Below are positions 630 to 35,917 of a stretch of 64,000 nucleotides of DNA, piece after piece. A program made the translations under genes and the position numbers. Position 1 is the first letter of the stretch; every line of letters begins with the position of its first letter. The stretch is from Narcine bancroftii (taxonomy: Eukaryota), in the NCBI RefSeq assembly GCF_036971445.1, contig NC_091472.1, forward strand, positions 313,906,001-313,970,000, given 5' to 3'. The notes below the pieces were generated by a model. That model was not told the origin of the DNA, did not search any database, and saw nothing but the letters and a program-made list of their open reading frames with translations.

Positions 630-1050
630 GAGTCTGTTGTTGAGAAGTCAGATGGTGGAGGGGGAGAAGCTGTTCCTGAACCTGGTGGTGCGAGTCTTGT
701 GGCACCAAGACCTCTTTCCTGATGGCTGCAGCGAGAACAGAGCATGTGCTGGGTGGGGTGGATCTTTGATGATTGCTGCTGCTCTCCGACGGCAGCGTTC
801 CCTATAAATGTTCTCGATGGTGGGGAGGGTTTTGCCTGTGACGTCCTGGGCTGTGTCCACTACCTATTGTAGGGTTTTACACTCAGGGATCTTGGTGTTC
901 CCATACCAGACCACGATGCAGCCAGTCAGCACACTTTCCACCACACCTCTGTAGATATTTGCCAAGGTTTCCGATCATACCAAACCTTCATAAACTCCCG
1001 AGGAAGTAAAGGTGCTGACATGATTTCTTCATACTGACACTTTCATCTTG
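630..1050 (-). mobile_element. Rex/Babar-type LINE 3' fragment
   Basis: ORF 648-860 (IIKDPPHPAHALFSLQPSGKR...TTRFRNSF) is the typical C-terminus. Related copies lie at 38600-39050, 60070-60335 and 62140-62940. Confidence 0.7.
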
Positions 1051-1297
1051 GGTTCTGGGTTTCCTTGTGCAAGTTAACCTAAAGGAACATTTGCAAGTTG
1101 AGTTGGTGGCGATGAGGGCAAATGCAATATTGGAATTCATTTCAAGAGGAATAGAATACAATAGCAGGGATATGACGATGAAGCTTTGTAAGGCCTTGGT
1201 GAGACCTCACTTGGAGCAGTTTTGGGCTCCTCATTTAAGAAAGGATGTTAGAGAGGGTTCAGAGGAGGTTCACTAGGATGATTCCAGGGATGAAAGG

Positions 1298-3315: not shown

Positions 3316-5161
3316 ATGCATGGAATTCTTTAACAGAGTTAAAGGAAACTATCCTTACTGAACAGTTGAAGTTTTGATTTAAAAACCTGGAGCATTGGCT
3401 TTAACCAGCGTGGAGTAAAATTGACTGAACTGAGCCATTTGAAGCATGCTGTGGAAATTCTACACATTTTCTAATGGTGTTCTTCTTTTAAATCCATGTG
3501 CACAATTTATTCTTATTATGTCAAATGTGCAGTTTATGGATGGAAGTGGATTGAACAGAATTTCCACCATACTTGGTTATAAACCAGAAACTGGGGAGAA
3601 AAAAACCCCGATTTTAATTTTGCCAGAGTGCAGTTTAAATAACTGCCAAGGATTTGACGTCTGGTATAAATCTAAACTTCCAATTATGTCTGTAAATTTG
3701 TTTTTGGCATTGCATTATTTATAGATGACATGGCAACTATCTTCCATGATAACATGCTCATGGTGATTTGAAGGCCAGAGATAAATTATAACACCAGAAA
3801 CACAATAACCGTCTGGATTTTTGCTGTTGTCTGGTTCGTAAAATGAGATGCATTCGACTTGATTTCACCCCCCACACAAAACACAAGAGGCCATTCAGCC
3901 TATCATCCCTGAGCTGGCTGAGTTCTCCAATTTAGACCCCAATTTTTTGGGGGGTGATGGCTTAAATCATGTCCAACTTGTCAGAAGAAAAATAAAATCC
4001 AAATTTATCTTAGAAATATAAGACCATAGGATATAGGAGCAGAAGTAGGCCATTCGGCCAATTGAACCGGCTCTGCCATTCCATCATGAGCTGATCCATC
4101 CTCCCACTCCCCTGCCTTCTCCACATAACCTTTGGTACCCTGACTATACAGACAACTCTCAATCTTTGCTTTAAATGCACCCAACGGCCTGGTCTCCAGG
4201 GCTGCCCGTGGTTATAAATTCAGAGGTTCACCATCATATTTAGGAGGAGAAGCAGGCCATTTGGCCCATCAGGTCCGCTCCACTAGTCCATCATTCTCCC
4301 ACCCAGCCCCATTCCAGGTTAATATGAATGCATGGGGATGGAGAAATCCAGAGACAGAATTGATAAATAAAAGTTTATACAGAATGACAAGAGATGGTAT
4401 GCAGACGCAGAAGGTTTCAATAGCAATCATATTCCTAATATTCTGTAGAATGTTTCTCCACCCTTGCCATGCGGTTCTATCCTTCTCTTTTTGTTGGCAG
4501 CTGATTGGGCAATCAACATTGCAAGAAAGGCAGATGAGCTTAGAGCATGGATTGCCACATGGAATTATGACATTGTGGCCATAAGTGAAACCTGGTTGTA
4601 GGAGGGACAGGACTGGCAGCTCAATGTTCTGGGCTTCCGTTGCTTTAGACATGATAGTGTGGCGGCCCACAATTGCAGAGATCGGGCCGGCACATCACGC
4701 AGCAGCAGACGCTGACAGAGATCGCTAAAGCGACTCCCAGAACAATGAACTGGCGGGGGTAGAAGCTGGGGCAACATCAGACCAACACCCCTAAAATGGC
4801 GTTGGTCAAGCTGCCCAGCTAACTCAGCAGAAACAGGCTGGGGAAGAAGGGCATTCGTATGCATGGATGTTCCTGCCCGTTATTGTTATTCATACGGATT
4901 GTACTGACAATAACCTCACCAGCAGTAGGAGTATAAGACAGCTGTAATAAACTAATATGTACACTACGAGGTCTTGTCTCTACAAGACAAACCTGGAAGG
5001 CTAGACTGTAGCTCTGGACTGCTTTATAGACAAGGTCACCGGGATGACCCCTGGTGGCCTAGTGGTGGAATTACATCTCACCACATGGATGACTCAGTCA
5101 ATCAGCAAAAACGGTGGTGGGGGGAGACAACTTGAACAGTACAGAAGCAGCCTTTCCAGCC

Positions 5162-6767
5162 CTAATAAATGAGTAAGCTTAACCTGCCACACTGTGTGTT
5201 TCTTTGTAGCGGTCGGCTACAATTCCATGTTTTCACCAAACTCCTAAATGTTTGTCTATAAGCTTCCAGAACCAACTCATAAGCTTTCAGTACTGCTTGT
5301 TCAACAGTATCATAATCTGCCACTTGCTCTGCAATCAAGCTACAGGATGCAATTTGTGCTTTTCCCTTCAATCCACTTTGAAGCAATAAAGGCCATTTTT
5401 CTTTTGGCCATCTTGAGCTCTCAGCAACCTTTTCAAACAGCTGAAAATATGGATCTATATCTCCCTCATCAAAAGGAGGCACTAAATTTACCTCTCCCCA
5501 GGAGTTACAGCCTCAGCTCTCTTACCTTTCCCTTACTCCATTCTTAACTTCTCTAATAGAAACTGTCTGTCCTTTCAGCTTCTTCTGCCTCAATAATGTT
5601 GTTTGTGCAACTCAAAATTACATTTCTCTCTTTCATCTTGCGCTCTCAATTTCTCCAATTCCAATTGCAATTCAAATTTTCTCTGGAAAATTTTCTAAAT
5701 CTTCCTCAACAAATTTTCCTTCACATATAATATTTCACTATAATCCTCTATATTTCTACTTTTCTCACCCAATGCTTAACTTTAGTAATTTTCAGTGCCT
5801 TGCAAATAGGCATCAGTTCCTCTTTTCTCATGTTCTACAGGTGATGGTTATAACAAAAATTTATCAATATCCATTGCTGCTGTTTTTCCAGGGACCAGCT
5901 TTAAGTTCGCTTGCAAAAATTCCAGACACAATAGCTTGCAAAAAAACCCAATCAACTAATAAATCATCAAATTGCAATGTTCAAATCCTAAATAACGAGT
6001 CCCCATAAAATGTTATAGAGTCCAGAGGACCCCAAAAACCAGCAGTAATAGATATGCACCACAACACAGGGTGACTTAAACAAAAGTCGTTCTTAATTAT
6101 ATTTGAACAAGAAAACAGAATTAAACTTTAACTTATTACTTAACCTACCTAACCCACTTAATCCCCCCATCTAATACTAAGCGCAGGTGTGTGTAATGTA
6201 TATTTAAGATTGGAAAAGTTCTTTGGATCTCAGTCCAATCTCACGGGTTGCAGGCAATTCTTGTACTGTGCACAGAAATTCGCATTAACAAAGTTCACCC
6301 GTCTTGGGTGCTTAACAGGCAAATGGTTACCACTCAGAAGGGTTCTTGCTGGTTTTCCGAGAGAGATTTATTTTCCAGGACATCCACAACTGATTCCTTC
6401 TCAATCAGTCTTACTGATGAAACTTGCCCCCTTCAGGGTTCTCCAGATGATCCTCTTTCTTTCAGGTCACCTTTCAGACCGCCAGTCATCTCCTTTGACC
6501 AGGCAGCCTTCCAAAGTTTGCCAGCTTGTCCCTCTGGAACTGATTTCTGTGACTCTTTCTCTCTCACTCCCTCCCTCTCTGAGAGCAAAGCTGTTCTGCC
6601 CCCGTTTGAAAAGATCACATGCTCTCCCAGGCAAGCTGCTGTCGATACTTTACTGCTCCTCTGAAAAAAGCATTCTTTAAAAGTCCTGCAAAAATTCTGT
6701 TTTAAAATGTGTATGAGCAAGCTGCTCAAGCAATTCCTCCCAAGCCACCTCTAAATACTCTGTCACA
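5162..6767 (-). mobile_element. Gypsy-type element: LTR (6011-6767), PBS and gag fragment
   Basis: LTR is bounded by TGT...ACA. Minus-strand TGGGGACTCGT next to it (5995-6005) resembles a tRNA-Pro PBS. The gag-like peptide reads PPFDEGDIDPYFQLFEKVAESSRWPKEKWPLLLQSGLKGKAQ. Confidence 0.7.
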
Positions 6768-6769
6768 GT

Positions 6770-7160
6770 ACCATTCGTCCATAATCTTTGAGCAGTGAAG
6801 TTGAGTTCTTTACTAATACTTGGGGTTTTTGACATATAACTTCAAGCCCACATCACCCAAAATCTAATGGCCTAACAGAGAGCTCTGTCAAGGTGGTGAA
6901 GAGCCTCATGAAGAAAGCACGTGATGGAAGAGAGGATTTCCACACAAATTTAATGATTCACAGAAAGGCGTCATTACAGAATGGCCTTTCTCCTGCCCAA
7001 ATGCTGATGGCTCAATGCATATGGACCAACCTTCCAATGCATGAAAATCTGTTGACGCCCAAAGGAGCAACACAAGGTCAAACAGGCTAAAGTGGAAGAG
7101 AAAGTAAAACAGAAACAGTCTCATGATAAGGCTGCAAAAAACCGACCAGTCCTGAAGCCT
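6770..7160 (+). mobile_element. Gypsy integrase relic
   Basis: Degenerate TSSPHHPKSNGLTESSVKVVKSLMKKA...NGLSPAQMLM integrase core end. Confidence 0.6.
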
Positions 7161-7889
7161 GGAGTTCCAGTGTGAATCTGAGATCACAATTCTGAGCACA
7201 TGGTTAATGAAAGGATATGTTCAGGAGGAAATAGATTCACATTCTACCCCATCCAGAGAGGGAGGGACACCTCAGAGAAGGAGCCTCGTACATCTACAAT
7301 CCCAAGCTCCAACCCAATGGTCGTGACCCGTCACTATCAGTGCAGGAAAGGGGCCAGCACCGGCAGAAAGGAACATGTTGTTCAAAGTTGACAGAAAGAA
7401 ACAAATACTAATGCAGCAAATGCGAGTAATCCACCTGTGGAAACACATACGCGACCAAAAAGCCCCCTCATAGACTGATTGAAAACTGCTGAGTGGAAAG
7501 AGACTGGCCACGGAACATAGATGCACTTGTTCTCTGTCGGCATAGTATTGTTTTTGTGTTCTTAAGATATGTGTTTCGAATAGAGAACTGCATTTCCCAG
7601 TAGGTAATGGGAGTGGTAGGGCGCGAGAAGAAAATGGGTAAGTGCCCTTCCTGCCCCTTAATTCGTCCTCTATGGGGGGGGGGGGGGTGTAGTGCCTACA
7701 CTCCGCAGATGGAGGACAAATTAAAGTCCAGCTTGCAGTGGGGCTCAAAAGCAGGCCTGTCCGGCCTAAAACGTGACGCCCGGCCACCCGAGGGCAAGCG
7801 GCTCAAGCGATAGAATTGTTTTAAGTGTTAAAACCATGCAAGGTTGTTGTTCTTCGAGGAACAAAACATATGGGGAAAGTCAACGGGCC

Positions 7890-8700
7890 CATCAGGGGCG
7901 CGCGAGGCAGGGCTGAAGAAGGAGCTGGGGCCCTGAGGCAGAGGAAGGGTTGGGTGGGGGGGGGTTGGCTTGTGTAGGCCTCTGGCCGTTTTGGTCAAGG
8001 CGCCTGGCCAACCCGAGGCTGGCGCGCCTGCGCACTGCGGCTCCGGCGCCATGGCGGGCCGAGCGCGTGACGGCGAGCGGGGGCGGTGCGCACGCGCGGG
8101 GCGGCGAGCCTGGGGCGGTGCGCATGCGCGGGGCGGCGAGCCTGGGGCGGGGCGGGGCGCATGCGCGGGGCGGCTTCCTGCGCATTGAATTGGTGAAACG
8201 CCCAGCTCGAAGACGGGAAAATGGTCTGGCTTATTTCTTTCATTGCGCGATTACGGTTTTAAATGGTGGAGGCGGTCAATCTCGAGTCAGTGGGTCGCGG
8301 TTTTTACTTCGAACGTGGGGGCGCTGCTTTCCAGAAAACGGGTTGGTTTCCCGCGCTCGTCACGGGGGGGGGGGGGGGGGGAGGGGTTTGGCCGCAAAGA
8401 ATCGGGCCGGTTCCTCTCTCTCCCTGGTGCAGATTTTTTAAAACTGTCGGAAATCATGGTTGCGGGAGGAATTTCTCCCCCCCCCCCTGTACTTTACTGC
8501 TTTAATCGTGTACGGTCAGGATGGCGGCGCATCCACGGAGGGCGGGCGACCGCCTCAGCGCATGCGCACTGCGGACCCGGCTGGGCCGCCGCGGTCGGAG
8601 TGGTTCTGCGCATGCGGAAAGCGCTGACCTTGTGCCAGGTGGATGCGCATGCGCGGGCGTTCATGTGTGGCCTTCTCAGAGAAGGAAAATGGCGGGGGCA
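7890..8700 (+). promoter_or_regulatory. CpG-island promoter of alpha-tubulin A
   Basis: Dense CpG, repeated NRF1-type GCGCATGCGC motifs (about 8120, 8158, 8558, 8645) and several GGGCGG boxes. Confidence 0.75.
8221..8223 (+). CDS. TUBA: Alpha-tubulin A exon 1 (initiator ATG only, predicted)
   Basis: GAAA-ATG|GTCTGG lies just downstream of the NRF1/GC boxes. Vertebrate TUBA exon 1 encodes only Met, and the context parallels gene B's ATG|GTATGG. The donor is weak. Confidence 0.5.
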
Positions 8701-8831
8701 ACTCAGTATGTTAAACTGTATCCATGGCATGCAATAGATAGCCAACTTTTTGGGCTTAAACCCTTCATCAGGAATAAGACTCCAAGGGTCATATTCATTA
8801 AACTATTTATTGTATATATGGATACTTTGTC

Positions 8832-9396
8832 TTGCAGGGGTGGGGGGGGCTGCAGGGGTGGGGGGGCTGCAGGGGTGGGGGGGCTGCAGGGGTGGGGGGG
8901 CTGCAGGGGTGGGGGGGCTGCAGGGGTGGGGGGGCTGCAGGGGTGGGGGGGCTGCAGGGGTGGGGGGGTTGCAGGGGTGGGGGGGCTGCAGGGGTGGGGG
9001 GGCTGCAGGGGTGGGGGGGCTGCAGGGGTGGGGGGGCTGCAGGGGTGGGGGGGCTGCAGGGGTGGGGGGGCTGCAGGGGTGGGGGGGCTGCAGGGGTGGG
9101 GGGGCTGCAGGGGTGGGGGGGCTGCAGGGGTGGGGGGGCTGCAGGGGTGGGGGGGCTGCAGGGGTGGGGGGGCTGCAGGGGTGGGGGGGCTGCAGGGGTG
9201 GGGGGGCTGCAGGGGTGGGGGGGCTGCAGGGGTGGGGGGGCTGCAGGGGTGGGGGGGCTGCAGGGGTGGGGGGGCTGCAGGGGTGGGGGGGCTGCAGGGG
9301 TGGGGGGGCTGCAGGGGTGGGGGGGCTGCAGGGGTGGGGGGGCTGCAGGGGTGGGGGGGCTGCAGGGGTGGGGGGGCTGCAGGGGTGGGGGGGGGC
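8832..9396 (+). repeat. 17-bp G-rich minisatellite (CTGCAGGGGTGGGGGGG), about 33 copies
   Basis: Directly visible, nearly homogeneous array with one internal TTGCAG variant near 8969. Confidence 0.97.
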
Positions 9397-10219
9397 TATG
9401 TGTGTGTGTCTGCACTGGGGACCAGAGAATGCAGTTTTTGGGTTGTACTTCTGCAATTGGATGATGATAAACTTGACCAAAATAATGTGGATGCCTGATG
9501 AGGGCAGGTACACGGGCGTGGTGTAATGAGAAAGGCCGTTTTGCAAATAGCTCATTCCAAAATACAGCAGCTTTTTTTTAAAAAAAAAACACTTGCAGAA
9601 TTACCAAAAGAGATTAGAGCGCACAAAGGCAATTTTATTTTGCCAGTCTGAGATTTATTTGGGAGTCTGGAAACAGTGAGAAAGAAATCATCCCTGAGTC
9701 TGGTGATGTGTCAGTGCTGGCTCATATCCACACAAGGAAGCTGAGTAGGAGAATTCAAAAATCTGCAGTGAAATTGAATTCTTTAGTTTTTATGGGAAGT
9801 ACGTTTGGATGAGTGGGGATGCAGGGCCATGGGAGAGAACTCAAAAAGCCCGCAGTTGAGGTGAACATGGAGCATTTTGGATAATGGCAGCGCAGCAGGG
9901 GCTGCAGCAGCTTCTTCAGACTTTTTAAAATCTAAGACTATAAAAATGTAACTTGTCTCTGCTGTGACCACCGTCTAGTTTTCATCTTTTACTGTATTGT
10001 TTTGCACTTTTTAAATTCACTGTAGCTCTGTGTAGGTGTGTTTCTGTCTCAGGTTTTTGTTTTGTCTGGTGTAGGAGTGGCATAGTCTTATGTTGTCTGT
10101 TATTTTTTTAATCTTGTGATGTGTAGGTAGCATTATGGTTTGGAGGAATGTTATCTCATTTTTTTACTGTGTACTATTTTCCATTCTGGCTTTAAATTAC
10201 AATAAAGCATATTAAGTAT

Positions 10220-12210
10220 AGGCTCTTTGTCCCATGTTGTCCCAAAAATACTAAACCCTCCCGACCTCTATTTTTCTTTAGTCTTTATGCCTGTCTTTTT
10301 ATTGGCCTGATTGTTCAAGCTTCCACCACTAACCCTAGCAATGCATTCCAGGCACCTCCAATTTTTTTTAAAGTAAACAATTTATTCCTGAGGTCTACAC
10401 TAAACTTTCCTCCCTTCACTTAGTACAGATGTCCTCTGGTGTTTGTTTCTCACATTCTGAGAAAAATGTGCTGGCTGTCCACCCTATCTATACTTGTCAT
10501 AATCTTGTAGACCACTATTAAGTCACCTCGTCCTTGGCTTCAAAAAGTCCTCACTCTGCTAACCTTGCCTGGATTGGAAAATATATCTTGGTAAACCTCC
10601 TCTGCACTCTCTCCATAGCCTCCATATCGTCCTGTAATTAATTGAACACGATATTCCAAGTGTGCTCAACCAGAGATTTGGAGAGCTGCAACATTACCTC
10701 ACAGCACCTGAAGTAAATCCCCCCCATTAATGAAGCCCAGCATACCATAGGCCTTGATTGCGCAACCACTGGCCAAACTATCCTGGCAACATTGAGAGAT
10801 CTATAGATTTGGACCCCAAGGGCCCTCTGTTCTTCCACACTGTTAACTATCCTACCATTAACCATGTACTCTACCTTCAAGTTCGTATCACCTCACACTT
10901 ATCCAGAATGACCTCCTTCTGCTACTTTTCCATCCAACTCTACATCCTGTCTTTATCCATTTGTAACTTAAGACAACCAATACTATCCACAACACCTCCA
11001 ATCTTTGTGTCCTTGTCAACCCTACTGACCCATCCTTTGTTCAGGTCACTTACAATGAGCAGGGTTCCCAGAACAGATCTCTGCAGAACTCCACTGGTCA
11101 CTCCTCCAGGCAAAATACTTCCTGTCCACTACTACTCTCTGCTTTCTACAGGCAAGCCAATTCTGAAACCACACAACTAATGTTCCATGGATTCCAAGCC
11201 TCATGACTTTCTGAATGAGTCTCCCATGGGGCGGGGTCTTGTCAGATGCCTTACTAAAATCCATGCACTCCACCCTCCCTTCATCAATTTCTTATTCCAC
11301 CTCAAAACCTTTAAGTTAGGAACAACCTTTCCCTCAAAGCCATTGCTAACTATCCCTGAGAAGTCTACTACCTCAAATGCTCGTAAATCCTGTCCTTCAG
11401 AATTCTCCAATAGTTTGCTCACCACTGATGGAAGACTCACCAATCTATCATTCCCAGGATTCTCCTTATTATCTTTTTAAACAAGGATAGGCTTTCTCCA
11501 ATTTCCACCTCTTTATGGTCACGGAGGATGCAAAGATCATTGACAATGCCATAACAATCTGCGATATCTCGTCCAGTCCTGCGTTTTTAACAAGATCCAG
11601 CACTTCCTCTTTCTTGATCTCGACATGGTCCAGCACACAGCTTGTTCTATTTGACATTACCATGACCAAGGTCCTTTTTGAATACTGAAGTAAAGTGTTC
11701 TTTTAGGACCTCCCCAACTTCCTCTGCCTCCAGGCACATGTTACCTCCTTAATCCTACTTGCCAAGGCCTTCTCATGCCCCCTTCAGCCTCTCCTAAATC
11801 CTTTCTGGCTGATAATCCTCACAGGCCTTTCATGTTTTTGGTCCCTAAGTTTAATGTCTGCTTCCTTCTTCCTCTAATGAGCTGCCGCACCTCTTTTGTC
11901 TGCCATGGTTCTCTTTTCCTCCCATCTTTTTCCTGTCTCAGTAGGACAAATCTATGCAGAACTCTGTGCAACTAGTCTCAAAACATTCTCCACATTCATT
12001 TGCTGCTTTCTTTGAATATCTGTTCACAATTTATGCTCCCATGTTCCTTCTTCATCCCTTCATAATTAGCCCTTCCCCAATTAAGCCACCCCCATTTTGT
12101 CTGCTGCCTTTATCCTTGTCCATAGCTATGCTAAAGTTCAGGGAGTGGTCACTATCACCAAAATGCTCCCTCACTGAGTTGTCTGTCACCTGACCCCGGT
12201 TCATTATCCA
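10220..12210 (-). mobile_element. Degenerate CR1 LINE
   Basis: Fragments MDFSKASDK, HTWNIVFN and VSLPSVVSKLLE match the CR1 RT at 33.4-35 kb. Confidence 0.75.
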
Positions 12211-14452
12211 GTATAGCTTCCTCTAGTTGGCTGGTGCACATACTGCATCAGTAATCCTTATTCAATGCATCTGATTAAAAGGAGTCCCACACAAGCTTGG
12301 GGAGCATTGCCTCATGTTCCACTTGAGTGCAGTTAACCTTCAGGACTACGTTGAATTCTCCATCTTTGTATAACTCGCTTTCTTTATATCAAAACTGGCC
12401 ATTTCTACCACAAGTCATTTGGCTCGGTTTATTCCCTCTCTGTACAGCTTGGCCTGCTGGGCACGTTCTACGGCCTTGCTGTTATCAATATATAACAAAT
12501 AGAGTAATAAACCTCACAGCCCAGTTCACCCATTTCAATAGATGACTCATTCCCATGGCAGCCCTGGTCTCATTTATCAGAGATGTTCCCTGTGTCCCTC
12601 CATTACCTCTGCAAATTGTGCACTTTTTGTCCAGAGATGCTGCTTTACCCTGCTGACTTTCCAGCATTTCCTTTGCTTTTTGTGTTGTTAAAAGATATGT
12701 ATCACATTGAAGATGTTAGGTTTTGTCAAGCTGGCATCTTTACTTAAGCAGAAAGACTTGGTTTTTATGCTCGAGAATGCAATCCTCTGGTTTAATTTTT
12801 AACTACCAAATTTTGAAGAAATCTGTAGTTATTGACTTTTTCCTCAAAGCTTGGGTCATTTTGGTTGTGGGAAGGGATGTAAATCAACTTGTTGCTGGTA
12901 TAATCCTTGTGGAATTTGGCAGCTCTGCTTATTCTCATAGTTAAATCTATGCAAGAGTAGTTCTTGTATCAGCAAATTCCAGATTTCTTTTTGTTTGTAC
13001 CTAACCAGTAACTTCTGTCTGTAGTTCAGAACAATGAGCCTTATTAGGGCATTTTTTTTTGTTTGACCTAGCTAAGCAACAGGATCAGCTGTTTGATACA
13101 TGTACAGTATTTCTGTTCTAAACTGATGTTGGCAAAGCAGTAGATTAGATCTTGTTATGTAAGACCCTTTAAGTAGTCTGTAAAATTCAATATTGTAATT
13201 GTACTTTTAAAAAATTGCATGGAATTCGCTGTAAATTTATTTCTACCCTTTAAAAGTACTCCACTTTTATTTTTGTCTTTAATATTTACATCCCTGTGTG
13301 TTTACTAGAATTAAAGATTTTAATGTTAAAATGTTTTTGCTGGGAACCTTCTCCAGCATATTTGTGTATTGCACGTCCCCAGCATCTGCAAACTTTATTG
13401 TTTAACTTGGTACACAGTGAATGTAGAATTTCATAAAACGTTTAATAAAATGTCACATGAATATTTGTGACAATAGAAGAATGACAGGTGACTTGTTGAA
13501 ATATAAAAGTTCTGAGAAGGACTGAGAAAATAAGGGGCAAAATTTTCTGCTGGCTAGAATAAAAAATATTGGCCTGTGAATGTTCCATTATTAAATATTA
13601 ATTCAGGGCAGATGCTGGGATCTTGGTAAAAGGCTAAATTTGATAAATAGAAGACCACACATCTCTTGAACCTTCCTCTTTTTTTTTGTCCTCTTTCTAT
13701 AAAGATACTCCCTGATTTGCGACCTACTTGACTTGCGTCCATCCGCACATGCGACAGGATTTTTTTTTAAATAAGAAAAAATCCAGAAAAATTACGCGGT
13801 TTATGCTGTATTTGACAAACTACAACAGAAATACAGGGCATGCAAGAGCCAAAATATGTGTACTTACCTTGTTATTTGGTGTCCCAGGGATCATGGGCTT
13901 AGCGCAGCCATCTTGATTCCTGTGCGCATGCACTAGTTTTTGATTGGCACATGCACATTGGGTTCACGTATTGGAATTCGGTTCGCACATGCGCGAGAGT
14001 TAAGGCACAAATTCAATATCATTAGGGCGGTAATATTTATACACAGGGACAAGAATGTGGAATTTCCTGCTGAGGTCCCATGAAGCAAATTTCAAAAGTT
14101 CATTGGATACAAGGAAATTATTGGGGAAGTTCACTTGCATCTGGATACACGTCTGTATCAGTACTCCTTATCATCTTAAATTTCCCATGTCTATACACAG
14201 ACAATTGAATTTATTTTCACTATTGTGTTTGTTTTACTCGATCTATCTACAAAAAGAACATTATCAGTTTTGTGGCTCTGAAGAATTTAATTCTGCTATG
14301 ATTTTTGGAAAAAATCTTTCCAAAAGTATGAACAAATTCCATAAATACCTTTTATTGAAGTTGTTTAGCTGGGACGTGTATGGATTTTCAAACTGAGCAT
14401 AAACATAATGCACAGCAGAAGTATAAAGATAACTAAGTTTTATGGTTCTATT

Positions 14453-15790
14453 AGAACCATGAACTGCTACAGCACAGAAATGGGCCCTTTTGGCCATTCT
14501 AGTCTGTGCCAAAACATTTTTTTAATCCTAGTCTCACTGACCTGCACCCAGTCTATAGCTATCCATATCTCTCCCATCCATGTACCTGTCCAATTGCTTC
14601 TTAAATATTAAATTTGAGCCGGCATTCACTACCTCAGCTGGAAGTTCGTTCCACACTCCCACCACTCTGTGTGAAGAAGTTCCCCAACAGATTCCCCCTT
14701 TCACTCTTAACCCATGACCTCTGGTTTGTATCTCACCTACCCTCTAGAAAATGCCTACCTACCTTTACTCTATCTATCCCCTCATAATTTTAAATCTCCC
14801 CTCATTCTACTCTCCAGGGAATAAAGTCAAGCAACATCCTAATACATCTTCTCTGCACTGTTTCTTTCTTATTGATATCTTTCCTGTAGTTAGGTGACCC
14901 AAAACTGCACACAATACGGTACTCCAAATATGGCCTCACCAATGTCTTATACAATTTTATCATAACATCCCAGCTCCTGTACTCAATACAGGTACACAGT
15001 CCTTTATTTGGACTTCTAAAATCTGGAAATCTCCAAAATCCGGTAAGTGGGGAGAGAGATGGCAGTGCAAGTCGGGATGGTGAGTGGGGGGGAGACCGGC
15101 ATCACGAGTTGGGCAGGTGAGGGGGGGGAGACCGGCAGCGCGAGTCGGGGAGGTGGGGGGGGGGGGGGACGACACCATGACTGGAGGGGGGAGTGAATGT
15201 GGCAGCACAATTCGGTGGGCTTGTATTCTGGCTTTCCAAAATCTGAAATTCAGAACACACCGTCCCCCAAGGGTTCCAGATAAAGGATTGTGTACCTATA
15301 CTTTGATTTATGAAGGCCAATATTCCAAAAGCTCTCTTTACAGCCCTAATCACCTGTGACTCCACTTTCAAGAATGGTGTATCTGTCTTCCCAAATCTCT
15401 CTGTTCCACCGCACTCCTCAGTGCCCGACCATCCACTGTGTCTGTCCTTGGTTTGTCCTTCCAAACTGCAACACCTCACACTTGTCTGCATTAAATTCCA
15501 TTTTTCCAGCAGGTCCAGATCCCTCTGCAAGCTTTGAAAACCTTTGCTGTTCACAACGCCTCCAATCTTAGTGTCATCTGTAAATTTGATGATCCAATTT
15601 CCCACATAATCATCCAGATCATTGATATAGATGACAAACAACAGTGGTCTCAACACTGATGCGTGAGGCACAGCACTAGTCATTGGCCTCCAGTCTGAGA
15701 AGCAATCGTCCGCCACTACTCTGGCTTCTCCCATCCAGTCATTGTCAAATCCAGTTCACCATAAATACCTAGCATCTGAACCTTCCTGAA
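14453..15790 (-). mobile_element. CR1 LINE 3' fragment interrupted by a MITE
   Basis: PLLFVIYINDLD...IKFTDDTKIGG RT motif and a CR1-type 3' tail near 14453. Confidence 0.75.
14989..15298. mobile_element. Tc1/mariner (pogo/Tigger-like) MITE
   Basis: TIRs caggtacacagtcctttat / ataaaggattgtgtaccta, flanked by a TA duplication (14987-88, 15299-300). The CR1 sequence resumes after it. Confidence 0.75.
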
Positions 15791-16436
15791 GAAAGACCTC
15801 TTGCAAGACTAAAATGACATCATTTAGCCTGATAAATAACTACCCAATTGTTTCATAAGATCCCAAAAGTATGAGTTTACTGCACTCGTAACATCTAAAA
15901 TAAAGTTGTTCAAGTTGTGTTAATCATCCTGGAAGTCTGACTCCTGCTTGAGCATTGGGTTTTGGAACACAGAAATGCAAAACTGTGTTCCCCTCGAAAA
16001 TTGTTTACAACTTAAGAAGTATAACGCTTTCCTTTGGGAACCATGCTTAAATTCCATAGGAACACAATTATAGTGTGAACAACTGTGCCTCACTGCCCTA
16101 CCTTCCCCATCTGCAACACGGTGGGGGGGGTCCATACCATTCTAACCAGGAAAGTCAAGTCAAAGAAAACAGCCTGAGCACGGGGCACTGTGATGTGACA
16201 ACCCATAAACCCCCCCCCCCCCATAGATGTTTCATATCTTTGTTGTAAATGTTCCTGAAAATGTTCTGTGTAACTGGTTAAGTGTTAAATCTTGAGGGTG
16301 TAAGGAAGAAGAGGGAAGGGCACAGAAAAAGCTTGAGCTCTACAGAAAATCTTGTATAGAATTGATGATTGTAAATTGTAATTAATTTTGATAATTTTGA
16401 GTTTAAGTTTGGAAAATCGAAAGAAAGTTGTGCTGA

Positions 16437-16808
<372 letters not shown>

Positions 16809-16811
16809 TAG

Positions 16812-16960
16812 ATGAGGTTCGCCATGGTACCTATCGGCAGTTATTCCACCCCGAGCAGCTCATAACAGGGAAGGAGGATGCTGCAAATAATTATGCTCGT
16901 GGGCATTATACTATTGGCAAGGAGCTGATTGACTTGGTCCTTGACAAAGTCCGTAAACTG
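16812..16960 (+). CDS. TUBA: Alpha-tubulin A exon 3 (149 nt)
   Basis: tag|ATGAGGTT...AAACTG|gtaaga, encoding [37 protein letters not shown]. Confidence 0.97.
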
Positions 16961-17860
16961 GTAAGATTCTTGCATGACGTCCATTAAAACAAGGGCAGTT
17001 GACAGTAATTGGTTCATGGTTTAATGAAATATCATCTATTTTCATATATTTTTTAGAGGACCTGATGGTACATTCGACTATGATGGCGGCTTCAGAGATT
17101 GCCCTTCACATCCAAAAACCTGTGTTTCAATCCTGACCAGGCCTGAACAGGGAGTGGATAACTAAAAGATCACATCTCCTTGATGCGTGTTAAGAGCCAC
17201 AAGTGAAATGCCTTCTTATAGTTTCCAAACTAAGTGCTGGTAAACATCTGTCCACAGCTCTTAAGGTACCCCTGTATTGGATGGTGTGAAGGTGTAGATC
17301 ATTTAACTGGCACCTTAAAATACACAAAAATAAAATAGTCCAGGATCAAGAAATATCAATTGCAGAATATATGAAAGTTTTGTAGATTAATAGAACGTTC
17401 AGGGGCCCATAAAAAGTGAAATTCCATTGCTTATTTTGTTTTTCTGCTGAGAATTCTATTGGTAATTTGTGGAAGAAGTTATTTTAGTTTTGTATTTGAT
17501 GACAACGGTATCACTTCAATCCCAGCAGCATTCAAAGTAATCAGGAACAATTAAACCCATGACTGTACATTGCAAATTAAGAAGGAGCAGGTACAGGGGA
17601 TCGTGAAGATTTTTTTTAAAAAGCAATACCAAAGTACAAGTTGACAAGGAATGGCCCAAGTAGCAATACATTTAACTTTGAATCGATAATTGGTGTGGTT
17701 GTTTGAAACATTTTGGATTTTTAAAAATAAAATACTCAAAATGGGCACAAATGGGTTCAGCGAAGATTAAATGATTCATGGACTTGGTGAATCAAAGAAA
17801 AATTGTTAATATTGGAATAAATGCAGATTTTCCTAGCTATATCTTATAGCTGTATGGTAA

Positions 17861-18865
<1,005 letters not shown>

Positions 18866-20779
18866 ATGATCTGAAACATTCCTAACTGCTGAGGTTAATA
18901 TGTTGGTTGATTCAAGGGAAGGAGATTTGATTCCTAGTATTTTTTCCTGTCAAGTGTAAATTATACTCATTAAAATTCTGCTTTTGTAGTAAGTTTGCTG
19001 AATATTGCAATTATAAGAAAATGTAAAGGGCAGTGGGCAAATAATAAACCTTCGTGTATCAGACAAGGATTGATTATTTATTTCAACCATAGCAAAACAT
19101 AGTTGTATACCATAAACAGTGGAAATAAATATTCCTGTTTAATTCACGCCCATGTCATGCATTGAGACCTTTGACGTCAAATAATTTGAAGTTTGGACTT
19201 GCAAAGGTATACTGTTGCAGGTAATTGGACCTGTTTGTCCAAATTGCTTGTGATGACAAAGCTGCCCTCATTTATCACTACCACCCCTTGCCAGGCCACA
19301 CTGCTAACATCCTAAATCCAAAATATGGTTACGAGCATTTCAGTGGAAAGAATTTTGTCCTTGTTTTTGGGTCAGGGGACCTTTACCCAGACTAAAGTTG
19401 GAATCAAAATTTATTGTCATGAACATGTCACATAATTTGTTGTTTTGCGGCAAAGTAAGGCAGTGTCAGAAGGGAACACTAAGTGTTCATCTTCTTGTAC
19501 TTCCCTCCTGATGGTAGCAGAATGAATGTGGGTGCTATTGTTATAACAGCACCAGCGATCAAGACCGGGGTTTGAATCCCGTGCCATCTAAGGAGTTTGT
19601 ATGTTCTCCCTGTGCATGGGATTTCCCTGGAAGCTCTGGTTTCCTCCCACTGTTTGAAACGTACCGGGGGTTGTTGGTTAATTGGGCAGCATGGGCTCAT
19701 GGGCTGAAATGTCCTGTTACCAAGCTGTAAGAGGGCATGGCCTGGGTAGTGAGGGCTCTTGAGGATAGAGACTGATTTATTAAGTCGTCATGCTTATTGT
19801 CATCTGATTGTACAAGTACAACTGATGGAACAGCATTCTCCAGTCCTCAAAGCAAAAGACGCAGACTCACAACCAGACATAACACACACACAGACAAACA
19901 ATACACATAAATAAATATTGTGTACAAATGAGAATGAGAGTCTCTGATGGTCACTATGAGCAGTTCCTTTGGTCATTCAGCGGTCTCACTACCCGTGGGA
20001 AGAAGCTGTTCCTCAACACCCACTCTGATACTCCTGCATCTCTTCTGCCAATTGTAAATGCCCTCATTAGAGTTGGAGTATCTGAAAGTCGTTATTTGAT
20101 TCATCTATATAATTTATACAATTTAATTTTGTATAGAGGGAGGGGTTGGATTATTAGGGGTTTTTTTCTCCTTTTTTTTCTTAGATAAACTTGGTAAAGA
20201 TGGGTTTAACTTTGGATCATTAAGGTTGATCCTATCGCAGGATGAAAATGCCTGAAAAGTATAACATCTTTTGTTAATATAAGGGATTCTTAATTATCTC
20301 TTATCTATTTTCTATTCAACATTAATTTTGGCCATATTATGAGAAATGGGGTAACAACTCAGAATTCAATGTTTTGAATGGGATAAGTAAATAATTACGG
20401 TTATACTTCTGGTTTACAATTTTTGTGTGATATGTATATGATATGATTTATGTTACTAATTAGAGAACCATGTATAAAGGGTTTTGCTATTAAACTCAAT
20501 AAAAAATATTTTAAAAAGGAAAGAAGAGAGTGAAGGCTAGTGCAAAGAAAACCCAAAGGGTCCTTTGCAAAGTAGATTGGATGGGCTGAATGGCCTGCTC
20601 TGATGTCTCTTGGTCCTTTGGAACATTGACCATTTCTACCCCAACTAACCTGCTGAAGATTCCAGCTTTTTTTGTGTATCTTAGAAGAGAATCTATTGAT
20701 CAAGTTCTCTCTCTGGATGCCTCATCTCCCAGATTTTGGCAACAGTGGATCGATGGTTTGCCTGGAACTACAATACCCA

Positions 20780-21020
20780 CAATGCTTCCAAAAGCGGCGC
20801 ATGCGCAGACAGTATCGACGCAAGCGGGGACGAGGCTGAAGGACAATGGCCCCTTTTTTTGCGTCTGCGCATGCGTAGTTATTGCGATTGTTGCCACTGA
20901 GACCGACATGCGCGCCTGCAACGCTACGCATGCGCAGCGGATGGTGAAGGTTTTGGCGGGATAGCGCAGCGGCAGCACATGCGCGGGGAAGGGAATCGAA
21001 TTTCATCATGGTATGGCGGC
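20780..21020 (+). promoter_or_regulatory. CpG-rich promoter of alpha-tubulin B
   Basis: Several GCGCATGCG / ACATGCGC NRF1-type motifs, and an X-box-like GTTGCCACTGAGAC at 20890-20903. Confidence 0.7.
21008..21010 (+). CDS. TUBA: Alpha-tubulin B exon 1 (initiator ATG only, predicted)
   Basis: CATC-ATG|GTATGG at the end of the CpG-rich segment, phase 0, compatible with exon 2. Confidence 0.65.
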
Positions 21021-21089: not shown

Positions 21090-21600
21090 CACCCCTCCAC
21101 CGGGGCCAGACCCCCAACCCCATTCCCCCACTGAGGCCAGACCCCCACCCCTCCTCTGGGGCTGGACCCCCCATGCCTCCATCCCCCTCCACCGAGGCTG
21201 GACCCCCCACCCCTACATCGTGTCCACACCCACACCCCCACCCCCACCGAGGCTGGACCCCCCACCCCCACATCGTGTCCACACCCCCACCCCTACATCG
21301 TGTCCACACCCCCACCCCCACCGAGGCTGGACCCCCCACCCCTACATCGTGTCCACACCCACACCCCCACCCCCACCGAGGCTGGACCCCCCCACCCCTA
21401 CATCGTGTCCACACCCACACCCCCACCCCCACCGAGGCTGGACCCCCCCACCCCTACATCATGTCCACACCCCCACCCCTACATCGTGTCCACACCCCCA
21501 CCCCTACATCGTGTCCACACCCCCACCCCCACCGAGGCTGGACCCCCCACCCCCACATCGTGTCCACACCCCCACCCCCACCAAGGCTGGACACCCCCTC
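21090..21600 (+). repeat. C-rich modular minisatellite
   Basis: Shuffled modules ccccaccgaggctggacccccca and cccctacatcgtgtccaca. Confidence 0.92.
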
Positions 21601-22479: not shown

Positions 22480-22830
22480 AAAAGCCCCTGGTATCTGGAA
22501 TTCAAGCAACCGGCAGAAAAAATTGAGGAATTGAGCTCTGGAACGTGGCAATTTTTGCAAGCTTCTCCAAGCAGATCCTCTCCTGACATTCATTTAACTT
22601 TGCACGACCAGGAACCTTATTCAAACAGCTGCTACGAGCAAAGCACTCCGCTGGCTGAATACTTGCTCCCATCTTCACCAACGGTTTGTTTTACTTCAGG
22701 GACCATTTATTTTTACAATTGTAAACATTTTAACCTATTATTATTTATTTTAATTATTAAAATGTATTTTCCTCAATGTTTGAGCTTGAGCTGCTGGTTG
22801 CTTGATTTCCGGATACCAGGAGTTTTACTG
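22480..22830. mobile_element. Tigger-like non-autonomous DNA transposon
   Basis: TIR-like ends (cccctggtatctggaattcaagcaacc / ggttgcttgatttccggataccagg). A related, inverted copy spans about 23690-24600. Confidence 0.55.
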
Positions 22831-23410
22831 GAATTAGAATTTACCACCACTCTCAGAGTAAAGGCTCAAGGTCCATTACCCAGATCTTCTCCATGGCTGA
22901 TAGGAATTAAGTCATACAATATAAAGGTTGACTTGCCTGGATAGCATGCAAAGCAAGGCCCGTCACTGTATCTCGGTACATATGACGATTATTTTATTTT
23001 ATTTAATTCTTGCCAAAGCATTGCCATTCCACTCAAGAAGCCCATACATTTATTCTTTGCACCCGACGAGTCCCACTATGTTGCATTCTTACACTGCTTA
23101 CCTTGTTTTAATGTAACTTTAAAATCAGCGAGTGCCCTCTGAGAGCATCTCCTGCTCTCTGCATGCTACATGTTCTCTCTCACAAAGCTTGGTAGTCTGC
23201 CGTCCCTGTAAATCCTGTGACAAATTGAACTTGTGGGATCTCCAGCACTCGAGGTCTTTCTGCTCACTTTGCTTCAAGATTACAATATGTTCTTACTGGG
23301 ATTGGTCACACTGAGTTCAAATTAGGAGAGATATCTTTGAAGGTGCCTTTCCTATCAGCCATTAAGATCCTCAGCATCAATTGAGGGTCTTGACAGTGGA
23401 CATTGAGACT

Positions 23411-23995
23411 TTAAATATATATAATTTTTAAATTAAATTTTGACATACAAAATGGCCATTTTGTCCCACAAGCCCTTGCTGCCCAATTACTCACAATTAA
23501 CCTGCACCTCTGGTACTTTTTGAAGAGTGGGAGGAAACCAGAGTCCCCAGGGAAACCCACTTGGTCACAGGGAGAACATACAAACTCCTTACAGACAGCA
23601 TGGGGGTTCAAACCCCAGTCCCAATTGCTAACGCTGTAAAGGCTATGCCAATCATGCCGCCCCTTGTAGAATGCTGTTAATTTCCAATTCTAGTAAAACC
23701 CCTAGTATCCAGAATTCAATCAACCAGCAAAAAAAGTTGAAAATAATTTTTTTAAATTAGGGTAGCATGGTTAACGTAGCGGTTAGTGCAACATTGCCAC
23801 AGTGCCAGCGATTGGAACCGGGGTTCAAATCTGGCGGTGTCTGTAAGGAATTTGTACATTACCCATGTCTGGGGGGGTTCCGATTTCCTCCCACCATTTG
23901 AAATGTACCAGAGTGTTGTAAGTTAATTGGGTGTAATTGCGCGTCATGGGCTGAAAGGGCCTGTTACCGTGCTGTATATCTAAATTTTTAAAAAA
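23411..23995. mobile_element. Two tRNA-derived SINE copies in head-to-head orientation
   Basis: A-box/B-box-like head (ggttaacgtagcggttag...ggggttcaaatc) and shared tgtaaggagtttgta core. Other copies near 19520, 29360, 39890, 42210 and 55545. Confidence 0.65.
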
Positions 23996-24694
23996 GAATA
24001 AAATAGGTAAAAACTAAGTGTTTACAATTGTGAAAATAAATGTTCTCTGAAGTTACACATGAACCTTTGGTGAAGACGGGAGCAAATATTCAGCCAGTGG
24101 AGGGCCTTGGATGTGTTTTGCTCCTAGCAGCTACTTAAATAAAATTGTGTGAAACAGCGATGGTGTCGCCCAGGGTGAAGAGCTGGTTGATGCCACTGGC
24201 TACTGGGGTGACTCTCATAAAGTGTGTCCTTATCCCTGCTTAGTAAGAGTCACCCTGGTCAAAAGCTTTCTCTGTAAACTAGGGGAAAGGGGGGTTAATT
24301 ATCTATAATGTTATTGTTCATCTTTTGGGCGGCTCCAAGGAGGGGGAGGAACCTGCAGATGCAGCAATGGTTAAATGTTTTCAAAGAATGTGATTGAAAA
24401 TAAAGAAAAATGATTTAAGGTTTATATATTCATGCAAGTGAAGTTTGTTCAGTGTAAGTACAGTCTAGTATTTTTGTCTTTTAAACTTTATTCTGAATGA
24501 AAGTAGATTAGACATTGTCAGGAGTAAGTCTCAATCAACCAGAAAATATACTTATCCAGAATCTACGAATCCCCATAGGATACCAGAGGTTTTTATTGTA
24601 CATTTATAATAAATTGAGATTGCTTTGACTTGCTTTTACAATCACAACCTGACCTGTATTTAAATAATTTGGAATTTGTAACTCATTGTCACAG

Positions 24695-24917
24695 CATGAA
24701 TGTATCTCCATCCACATTGGCCAGGCTGGTGTCCAGATTGGAAATGCCTGCTGGGAGTTATACTGTTTAGAACATGGTATCCAGCCTGATGGATTTATGC
24801 CCAGGGATTGGACCTACAGAGCTGCCGATAATTCCTACAATACTTTCTTCTCTGAGTCGGGTGTTGGAAAGCTTGTCCCGAGAGCTCTATTCATCGACTT
24901 AGAACCCACTGTAGTTG
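24695..24917 (+). CDS. TUBA: Alpha-tubulin B exon 2 (223 nt, divergent)
   Basis: cag|CAT GAA TGT ATC gives [52 protein letters not shown]. Ends at a GTAAGT donor. Confidence 0.95.
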
Positions 24918-25369
24918 GTAAGTCTAATGTAATCTGTTTCTATCTCAATTTTATCTCGTTTAGAATTTAAATGGCAAAAGGAATTTTGAATATTGGTAAC
25001 ACTGCTTCCAAGCAACAGATACTATCTTCCATAAAATGTCTATTGATGACTGTGTGCATGCAGACAGGCACACACAAAATATTCTAAAGTGATCAAAGGT
25101 GTGGAGCAGTCGCATGGTCAAAGGGGCTTGTCACGGAAAGCCAACATGCAGATGGAACAGACAACCAGGAAGGCAAATGGCATTTATTTCAAGAAGATCT
25201 GAACACATGAATACTATTTCCAAATCCTCATTTTAGTTAGTTATGGGATCATGAAGTATTATGGTGTTATTTTCCTGATTTTCAGTTGTTGCATTTGGAT
25301 ATTGCATTGAGAAAAGTTTATCTTCAAGAACAAAGTTGTAAATGTTAAAATTTTGCAAGATTGGAGATC

Positions 25370-27467: not shown

Positions 27468-27616
27468 ATGAGGTTCGTACCGGTACCTACCGCCAGCTGT
27501 TCCACCCAGAACAGCTCATCACAGGCAAGGAAGACGCTGCCAACAATTATGCCCGTGGGCACTACACCATTGGCAGAGAGATTGTCGATCTAGTTCTGGA
27601 TAGAATACGCAAACTG
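27468..27616 (+). CDS. TUBA: Alpha-tubulin B exon 3 (149 nt)
   Basis: cag|ATGAGGTT...AAACTG|gtgaga, encoding [37 protein letters not shown]. Confidence 0.96.
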
Positions 27617-33273: not shown

Positions 33274-35829
33274 TAGAAACATAGAAACATAGAAGATAGG
33301 AGCAGGAGTAGGTCATTCGACCCTTCGAGCCTGCTCCGACATTCAACGAGATCATGGCTGATCTTAAAGTTCAGTACCCCGTCCCCGCCTTCTCTCCGTA
33401 ACCTTTAATACCCTTATACTGAAGAAATAGATCTAATTCCCTCTTAAATAGATTTAATGAACCTGCCTCTACTGCCCTCTGTGGCAATGAATTCCACAGA
33501 TTCACCACCCTCTGGGTAATGAAATTCCTCCTCATCTCGGTCCTAAATGGTTTGCCTATTATCCTCAAACCATGGCCCCGGGTTCTGGATTTTCCCATCC
33601 TTGGAAACATCCCATCTGCATCCATTCTGTCCAGTCCTGCCAGAATTTTATAGGTCTCTATGAGATCCCCCCTCAATCTTCTAAACTCCAGCGAGTACAA
33701 TCCCAATTTGCACAATCTTTCCTCATAAGTCATTCCTGCCATTCCAGGTATCAGCCTGGTGAATCGCCTCTGCACTCCCTCCATTGCAATAACATCCTTC
33801 CTTAGATAAGGTGACCAAAACTGCACACAATACTCCAGGTGGGGTCTCACCAAGGCCCTGTACAGCTGTAGTAAGGTATCCTTGTTCCTAGACTCAAACC
33901 CTCTTGATATGAAGGCCAACATACCATTTGCCTTTTTAACCGCCTGCTGTACCTGCATGCTTGCCTTCAGAGACTGGTGTACAAGTACCCCTAGGTCTCT
34001 CTGCACTTCCCCATCTCTTAATCTATTGCCATTTAAATAGTAATCTGCCCTCCGGTTTGTATTACCAAAGTGGATAACCTCACATTTATCCACATTGTAG
34101 TGCATTTGCCATGGATCTGCCCAGTCACTCAATTTATCCAAATCACACTGGAGCTTCTTGACCCCCTCTTCCATGCACACAACTCCTCCTAGCTTAGTGT
34201 CATCTGCAAATTTGGAGATATTACATCCAATCCCCTCATCCAGATCATTAATGTAAATTGTGAACAGCTGGGGTCCCAGTACAGATCCCTCTGGCACCCC
34301 ACTGGTCACTGCCTGCCACTCAGAAAATGAGCCATTTATCCCAACTCTCTGTCTTCTACCTGCCAGCCAGTTCTCAATCCACATCAATACTTTGCCCCCA
34401 ATCCCATGAGCCTTGATTTTGGAAGCCAGTCGTTTATGCGGGACCTTATCGAAGGCCTTTTGGAAGTCCAGGTACACCACATCCACTGGCTCTCCCCCAT
34501 CTATTTTACCTGTCACCATCTCAAAGAATTCCAATAGATTTGTCAAGCACGATTTACCTTTTTTAAATCCATGTTGACTCCGTCCAATCCCTTCTCTGCT
34601 AGTCATATGCTCCGCTATTACATCCTTAATAATGGATTCCATCATTTTGGCCACTACTGATGTAAGGCTCACCAGCCTATAATTCCCCGCTTTTTCTCTA
34701 CCCCCCTTTTTAAATAGTGGGGTAACATTAGCTACCCTCCAATCCATGGGCACTGATCCTGAGTCTATCGAGTTCTGGAAAATAATTCTTAAAGCATCTG
34801 CTATCTGAATGGCCACTTCCTTAAGTACCCTAGGATGTAGATTATCAGGCCCTTGGGAATTATCTGCCTTCAATCCCATCAATTTCCCCAAGACCATGTC
34901 CTTAGAGATACTGATTTCTTTCAGTTCCTCCCTTGCATTAGCCTCTATGTTTCCCAACATCCTTGGGAGGTTATTTGTATCCTCTCTTGTAAAAACAGAA
35001 CTAAAGTAAGAATTTAATTGGTCTGCCATTTCCTTATTCCCCATTATATATTCCCTTGATTCCGACTGCAAAGGACCTACTCTGGATTTCACCAATCTTT
35101 TCCTCTTGACATATTTATAAAAGCTTTTTCAGTCAGTTTTTATATTTGCCGCAAGCTTACTTTCGTAATTTATTTTTGCTCTCTTGATGAATCCCTTTGT
35201 CCTCCTTTGGTGCATCTTGAACTGCTCCCAGTCTTCGGTTGTGGAACTTTTTTTGGCCAATTGATATGCTCTCTCTTTGGACCTAACGCTGTCTCTAATT
35301 TCCCTTGTTATCCACGGTTGAGTCACCTTTTTTGGTTTATTTTTATGCCAAACCGGTATAAACGATTTTTGCAATTTCTCCATTAGATCTGTGAATGCTT
35401 TCCATTGTCTATCCACAGTCAACTCCCCCATAAACACCACCCAATCAATCTTACTCAACTCCCGTCTCATACCATCATAATTCCCTTTATTTAAATTCAG
35501 GACCTTAGTCTCGGTTTTAATTTCATCACTCTCCATGTCGAGTGAGAATTCGATCATATTGTGATCGCTCCTACCCAAAGGGCCTCGTACAACAAGATTA
35601 TTGATTAGCCCCTTATCATTGCATAATACCCAATCTAAAATGGCCTGCTCCCGAGTTGGTTCCTCGACACATTGAACTAGATAACCGTCCCGTAAACATT
35701 CAAGGAATTCCTCCTCCTCAGTATTTTTACTAACTTGGCTCGTCCAATTTATATGCAAATGAAAGTCTCCCATGATCACAGCTGTTCCCTCATTGCACGC
35801 TTTTCTAATTTCTCTTTTAATGCTTTCTC
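33274..35829 (-). mobile_element. Young 5'-truncated CR1 LINE; ORF2 nearly intact (574-aa RT ORF 33371-35095)
   Basis: YLDFQKAFDKVPH, GVPEGSVLGP and KFADDTK motifs, with (TTCTATGT)n-type 3' repeats. One in-frame stop at 35129-31 separates it from the endonuclease-linker ORF. Confidence 0.93.
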
Positions 35830-35917
35830 TTTCAACGGGTGTCTATATTTTTTCGGGATTACAGTAATTAAAGCACTAGAGCAAGATTCTGGTAACTCGT
35901 GCTGTTCACTCACTTGT

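Follow-up and report, generated by a model that had tools for sequence, protein, structure and literature searches.

A tandem alpha-tubulin gene with His2 and Trp40 in an elasmobranch clade and its possible escape from TTC5 feedback

Two tandem alpha-tubulin genes in Narcine bancroftii

The stretch of Narcine bancroftii DNA analyzed here (64,000 nt, termed the window) has two alpha-tubulin genes in tandem, A and B, both on the plus strand. Gene A is the canonical copy and is found at positions 16458–18865 (exons 16458–16680, 16812–16960 and 17888–18865). Its exon 2 opens at 16458 with CGG, the Arg of codon 2, and the closest canonical match of its protein is 96% identical. A search of positions 1–16457 of the window did not reveal exon 1 of this gene. 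This region contains strong ATG/GT donors at 3250 and 15077, the latter in a tandemly repeated element, and a CpG island with NRF1-like motifs is present at approximately 8000–8700, 5' of gene A exon 2.

Gene B consists of exon 2 (24695–24917, codons 2–76, which carries a divergent loop at residues 35–49), exon 3 (27468–27616) and exon 4, whose coding part (40306–41274) ends in TAG. The junctions are all GT-AG, and the spliced sequence encodes 446 aa without an internal stop. The C-terminal tail is short with Tyr as the last residue, and a polyadenylation-type hexamer is located at 41317, 3' of the stop. Exon 2 abuts an AG acceptor and begins with CATGAATGT (positions 24695–24703, His-Glu-Cys). 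Codon 2 of gene B (24695–24697) is thus CAT (His) versus the CGG (Arg) of gene A, and the letters at both sites agree with the original prediction, which had reported this difference. Codon 40 (24809–24811) is TGG (Trp) and replaces Lys40, which is the acetylation site (PMC12868001). There is one alternative AG in the 95 nt 5' of exon 2, with a start 76 nt away and out of frame. An in-frame TAA is present upstream at 24665, and no in-frame ATG is found between this TAA and exon 2.

The 446 aa are identical to residues 2–447 of a RefSeq model from Narcine bancroftii that starts with MHEC (P0243, XP_069792062.1). This model is not counted as independent support because it probably derives from the same assembly as the window. 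Genes A and B are identical in 382 of 450 aligned columns, with dN 0.090, dS 0.86 and a dN/dS ratio of 0.105; gene B is an intact gene under purifying selection. An orthologue, P0244, aligns with alpha chains in the PDB over residues 1–446 with an E value of about 1e-276. As judged from its frame, Glu254 and selection, gene B is an alpha-tubulin, and it has neither the MREC start nor the Lys40 that mark canonical isotypes.

A part of exon 4 in gene B (codons 342–421, positions 40954–41193) is nearly the same as its counterpart in gene A (18536–18775). Only 7 of 70 same-residue codons differ in this tract versus 123 of 368 gene-wide, and there are identical runs of 68, 59 and 50 nt. Gene conversion is the probable cause and looks to be active at this locus. 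In codons 2–21, 1 of 16 codons differs between the two genes (P 0.014, uncorrected for 22 windows). Gene A has Asn392, as does gene B of other species, and the gene B described here has the canonical Asp392, Thr381 and Glu423; this pattern suggests exchange between the paralogues.

A Pfam scan of 150 of the 153 open segments of the window revealed no neighboring host gene. There were two matches, both read as mobile-element remnants. At 50564–50869 on the minus strand there is a weak match to a retroviral-type aspartyl protease, with an E value of 8e-4 that falls narrowly below the cut-off; it is probably a remnant of an LTR element. An ALKBH8_N match at 60078–60347 adjoins a CpG island (60440–61000) with a 107-bp tandem duplication; in fishes, ALKBH8_N is frequently the tail of a LINE. 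Open frames of 585 aa and 237 aa lie on the minus strand (33371–35842) within the third intron of gene B, which is 12.7 kb long; by eye they look like a LINE reverse transcriptase and endonuclease.

Candidate exon 1 and promoter of gene B

An exon 1 that consists of the ATG alone is the usual layout of vertebrate alpha-tubulin genes. In the gene B clade, the models of four species begin with MHEC, and an exon 1 ending in ATG is therefore needed. There are nine ATG/GT sites between gene A and gene B exon 2. Exon 1 most likely ends with the ATG at 21008–21010, followed by the donor GTATGG (21011–21016), which is the best of 10 candidate positions. This placement comes from a comparison with the Mobula model, which has a 43-residue N-terminal extension that resembles mis-framed read-through. 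The first 30 residues of the extension align best to 20934–21014, including "EGFGG" and with the final "WY" over ATG/GTA at 21008. At the protein level, 110 of 500 shuffles do equally well and the match is not significant. With a degenerate DNA profile that allows indels, it is the best match on either strand in the whole window; 5 of 300 shuffles reach it over the 5.8-kb region, and none of 300 does so around the candidate at 21008. The runner-up positions are 24367 (10/300) and 20941 (22/300). The DNA-level match is to be taken as support and not as proof because the test was designed after the match had been noticed.

The extension in the Pristis model starts with MVC, which is compatible with ATG/GTATG, and scored 18/300 at 21008. 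Extensions in the Chiloscyllium and Amblyraja models gave no significant placement (32, 216 and 289 of 500 shuffles). An ACG/GT at 22681 resembles the Pristis extension and was considered as a mutated start codon. It was rejected, as 206 of 500 shuffles score as high, and it falls inside a repeat that has an inverted copy at 24016–24109. Intron 1 of gene B has a MITE-like short element with terminal inverted repeats, present at 22481–22853 and 23668–24142 in opposite orientations.

The stretch at 20790–21007 is the probable promoter and 5' UTR (exon 1) of gene B. It is CpG-rich (CpG observed/expected 0.83 in 20501–21000) and has no second copy within the window. Three GCGCATGCGC-type palindromes at 20797, 20867 and 20928 are what we take to be NRF1-like motifs, and TTTGGCGGGA at 20952–20961 is presumably an E2F-type site, as named from its motif. 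The latter lies within the block that matches the Mobula model, and its minus strand reads TCCCGC (20956–20961). The 10-mer is the only copy in the 64 kb on both strands; the hexamer TCCCGC alone has 20 copies. TCCCGC is the E2F6 site that silences germline genes, mouse Tuba3a among them, and E2F6 is found at cell-cycle genes as well (PMC8195999). Germline expression of gene B is therefore a tentative lead and somewhat doubtful, given the cell-cycle targets of E2F6 and the 20 copies of the hexamer. G/C-skewed minisatellites are found at 8833–9393 (a 17-bp unit x33) and 21148–21582 (25–56-bp units), each just 3' of a CpG-rich, promoter-like stretch.

The gene B clade of elasmobranchs and its residue 2

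A search with exon 4, in which the 8000 candidates sharing most words were scored, gave a single match that is both single-copy and better than canonical, P0135, with 93% identity. P0135 represents a 26-member cluster, and the comparisons use 15 members from 14 shark and ray species. The cluster is made up of elasmobranch RefSeq models named "tubulin alpha-1B/1C/alpha-3 chain-like" and contains P0243, the product of the window. The names are automatic, and neither the clade nor its N-terminus turned up in the literature searched. In a search with exon 2 for longer proteins, multi-copy models dominate and the best identity is 80%. A short-fragment search with the catshark N-terminus gave no additional orthologue among the best 120 of 5009 matches (top 85%).

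The 14 orthologues form one clade with an SH-aLRT of 100 and a stem of 0.16 in a quick tree of 39 rows, and the clade divides into sharks and batoids. The gene is therefore older than that split. Sharks and rays separated well over 200 million years ago. In a second tree with three outgroup rows, support is 100/100 for the clade and 100/98 for the sharks. TUBA8 and TUBAL3 were left out of the 39-row tree, which does not fix the placement of the clade among alpha-tubulins. The best explanation of these comparisons is that gene B represents an old elasmobranch isotype, which would have arisen by tandem duplication before the shark/ray split, diverged fast on the stem and been conserved thereafter.

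Across the clade, 378 of 446 columns do not vary, and the catalytic Glu254 is kept in all 14 orthologues. There are 39 sites where no member carries the canonical or the gene A residue. The clade-wide changes include S38R, K40W, I42Y, G45A, D47N, F49Y, H61L, L167F, A201C and S237C, with seven fixed changes in residues 38–49. Position 40 is Trp in 13 of the 13 orthologues that cover the site; of 450 copies from other alpha-tubulins, 430 have Lys at this site and none has Trp. Three of 21 Arg are changed in the clade, including R156C and R339Q, which are of the same CpG-type, one-base kind as R2H. Residues 3–30 are invariant across the orthologues except for position 16. The whale shark and zebra shark models (P0246, P0249) have Met16, as does gene A of the window, and both begin there. 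All six shark orthologues have Val-Ser-Met in place of Cys-Cys-Leu at residues 315–317, and the stingray and devil-ray orthologues (P0251, P0252, P0253) have Leu248Gln.

Residue 2 is covered by the models of nine species; those of the other 5 of 14 species begin downstream of it. The N-termini are those of predicted gene models throughout. His2 is present in eight of the nine species, seven rays and skates (Narcine, Leucoraja, Amblyraja, Pristis, Hemitrygon, Hypanus and Mobula) and the catshark Scyliorhinus. Four of the nine covering models start exactly with MHEC and are each 447 aa; four of the His models bear N-terminal extensions. The sole exception is the bamboo shark Chiloscyllium, with Arg2 in both records (P0241 and P0135), and no residue other than His or Arg is found. 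Among other alpha-tubulins, Arg2 is present in 402 of 406 motif copies and His in none of the 406 (357 proteins, which are top matches and not a census). Gene B had been proposed to be a natural R2H, with conservation in related rays and sharks as the check. The proposal is borne out, as His is found in 7 of the 8 covered species other than Narcine. An alternative suggestion, that CAT is a simple CpG transition, holds in part: the change needs one base, and a CpG transition may be its mutational origin. As a recent or private event it does not hold, since His2 is common to rays, skates and a catshark.

In a tree built from residues beyond exon 2, Chiloscyllium groups with the His-bearing Scyliorhinus among the sharks (100/98), which implies either one gain and one loss of His2 or two gains. 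A single His clade that leaves out the bamboo shark is not formally rejected (p-AU 0.057), and judged on position 2 alone, two independent CpG gains have an equal step count. A gain followed by a loss is favored because Chiloscyllium also shows the canonical residue at position 35. It has Gln35 where the 10 other covered species, including the whale and zebra sharks, have Phe or Ile; Phe to Gln takes three base changes and Ile to Gln at least two. From these sites we infer that His2 is ancestral for the clade. The Chiloscyllium protein is canonical at residues 2 and 35 and otherwise gene B-type, which suggests overwriting by gene conversion, as seen from the protein alone. The two sites probably mark a conversion tract, which would make this protein a natural MREC form of the isotype.

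TTC5 feedback, competing readings and known systems

TTC5 reads nascent MREI or MREC and then recruits SCAPER and CCR4-NOT (PMC10403363). R2, E3 and I4 of the nascent chain contact R147, D225 and E259 of TTC5 (10.64898/2026.01.09.698560), and TTC5 also pairs with nascent-chain residues 4–8 (PMC11570694). The same preprint (10.64898/2026.01.09.698560) cites Arg-to-His as enough to abolish beta-tubulin autoregulation and reports that, in HeLa cells, mRNA decay was lost when endogenous gamma-tubulin carried R3H. MHQV, which differs in three residues, is the standard non-binding beta control; in the same experiment alpha nascent chains were assayed and TTC5 binds them (PMC11570694). Decay of TUBA1A mRNA is lost upon TTC5 knock-down (PMC12714342; 10.64898/2026.06.23.733857). 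Human TUBA1A R2H, a change at a CpG site, still folds and is built into microtubules, although slightly less well than normal (PMC6119949). A decay assay of an alpha-tubulin R2H was not found in the literature examined.

These beta- and gamma-tubulin data, together with the entry of TUBA1A R2H into microtubules, make it most likely that the gene B isotype is competent for assembly and that TTC5 detects its mRNA poorly. In the proposed mechanism, exon 1 would supply the ATG alone and the chain would begin Met-His-Glu-Cys. This nascent chain would not have the Arg that docks in the acidic groove of TTC5, and TTC5-SCAPER-CCR4-NOT would be recruited weakly or not at all. With rising free tubulin, gene B mRNA would stay stable and that of gene A would decay. 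Control of the isotype would then lie in transcription only. Its subunits would be non-acetylatable (Trp40) and would possibly be made in germ cells or another specialized cell type; the suggestion of a cell type is weaker and comes from the promoter. On balance, exemption of gene B from TTC5 feedback, which the original prediction had put forward, is probable. It is plausible by analogy with beta- and gamma-tubulin and is weakened by the title of Bachurski 1994, according to which the tetrapeptide directs the decay of beta-tubulin mRNA and not that of alpha-tubulin mRNA. The presence of Arg2 in gene B of one shark, Chiloscyllium, also counts against it. A stronger version appears unlikely: that since before the shark/ray split elasmobranchs have kept an isotype selected for invisibility to TTC5, with which germ or other specialized cells would stockpile non-acetylatable tubulin while their other tubulin mRNAs remain under feedback.

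A serious, if doubtful, competitor shares this mechanism and departs from it on selection. His2 would have been fixed near-neutrally, once or twice, at a mutable CpG codon in a gene expressed where autoregulation is idle, and blindness of TTC5 would be real and inconsequential. Autoregulation is off in human iPSCs (10.64898/2026.06.23.733857), and Arg2 could therefore be lost free of cost from a gene that is active in cells of this kind. The one-base CpG-type change, its likeness to R156C and R339Q, the long stem branch of the clade and the tolerance of Arg2 in the bamboo shark are all consistent with near-neutral fixation. The lack of a third residue at position 2 in nine species argues against it. 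So does the persistence of His2 beside a 5' tract (codons 2–21, above) that is seemingly homogenized with gene A, although this is not decisive.

About 40 changes, including K40W and His2 itself, are specific to the clade, and a structural or relaxed-constraint reading therefore competes with the regulatory one. It is rather unlikely that His2, real and old, is co-adapted with the 35–49 loop and with changes near the longitudinal interface while the mRNA remains largely autoregulated. This would require that residue 2 is not the sole determinant of alpha-tubulin recognition, or that the TTC5 of elasmobranchs accepts His. Modeling of human R2H predicted a shift of loop 38–51 (PMC6119949), which is the loop that is rewritten in gene B by the seven fixed changes at 38–49. 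Gene B also retains residues 4–8, with which TTC5 pairs (PMC11570694), and the Bachurski 1994 title points the same way. Against this stand the single Arg-to-His that abolished gamma-tubulin mRNA decay, with the same stated for beta, the binding of TTC5 to nascent alpha chains (PMC11570694) and the dependence of TUBA1A decay on TTC5 (PMC12714342). The bamboo shark pairs Arg2 with the derived loop, which shows that the loop does not require His2.

A start of the protein other than MHEC is improbable. It would mean that exon 1 lies elsewhere, adds codons or is bypassed by a downstream Met, with the gene models misleading. The models of 10 of the 14 species have no Met directly before residue 2 (five extended, five truncated). 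The candidate exon 1 donor fits 6 of 9 consensus positions versus 7 for four internal donors, and there are several upstream ATGs within 20717–20979. However, four species yield the same 447-aa MHEC model. In the Amblyraja and Mobula models, the extensions end as if an intron end had been read through (compare the ORF at 24668–24970), and the Mobula extension maps onto the exon 1 candidate. The near-invariance of residues 3–30 speaks against a start further downstream. The chance of an assembly error or private polymorphism is negligible, as His is found at the same site in seven other species from separate assemblies.

The preferred reading remains an isotype with an mRNA that TTC5 detects poorly. 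The elasmobranch isotype with His2 is a real and apparently undescribed natural variant. No published account of the clade or of a natural MHEC tubulin was found in the sources searched (main texts, with few subscription journals), and alignments such as Figure S1 of PMC6119949 might show other natural non-Arg2 tubulins. In higher eukaryotes, autoregulation has been described as covering every alpha- and beta-tubulin isotype that is expressed (PMC9204600), and the tetrapeptide motif as one that the 18 human isoforms all share (PMC10501990). If true, a vertebrate alpha isotype that conserves His2 would be a natural exception to an autoregulation held to be general. It would be an opt-out by a substitution that is pathogenic in human TUBA1A, where it causes a brain disorder. 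The tandem MREC neighbor, gene A, is an internal control, and the bamboo shark offers a natural Arg2 form. The A/B pair makes it testable whether alpha-tubulin decay needs Arg2. It also bears on whether TUBA1A R2H disease reflects lost autoregulation or a structural effect, for which gene B may have compensated.

Among the closest known systems is human TUBA1A p.Arg2His, the same substitution in the first codon after intron 1 and one CpG transition away. It is a de novo, recurrent tubulinopathy allele of a canonical isotype (PMC6119949). In contrast, His2 of gene B is apparently fixed in a separate paralogue of rays, skates and a catshark, together with 39 other clade-wide changes. The engineered autoregulation-dead gamma R3H, beta R2 mutants and beta MHQV have the motif Arg replaced by His or another residue, as in gene B (10.64898/2026.01.09.698560; PMC11570694; PMC3698699). 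These engineered or disease beta- and gamma-tubulin alleles are from human cells, whereas gene B is a natural alpha isotype known from sequence.

As far as is known, TUBA8 and TUBAL3 lack Lys40. Along with testis Tuba3a/TUBA3 and TUBA4B, they are divergent or tissue-restricted vertebrate alpha-tubulins, and gene B is likewise divergent with an altered Lys40 loop. Human isotypes keep MREC, with TUBA4B the noted divergent case (PMC12868001), and they differ from gene B in this respect; orthology of gene B to TUBA8, TUBAL3 or TUBA3 is not established. Mouse Tuba3a has an E2F6-type site (PMC8195999), and a candidate site of the same type is located 5' of gene B.
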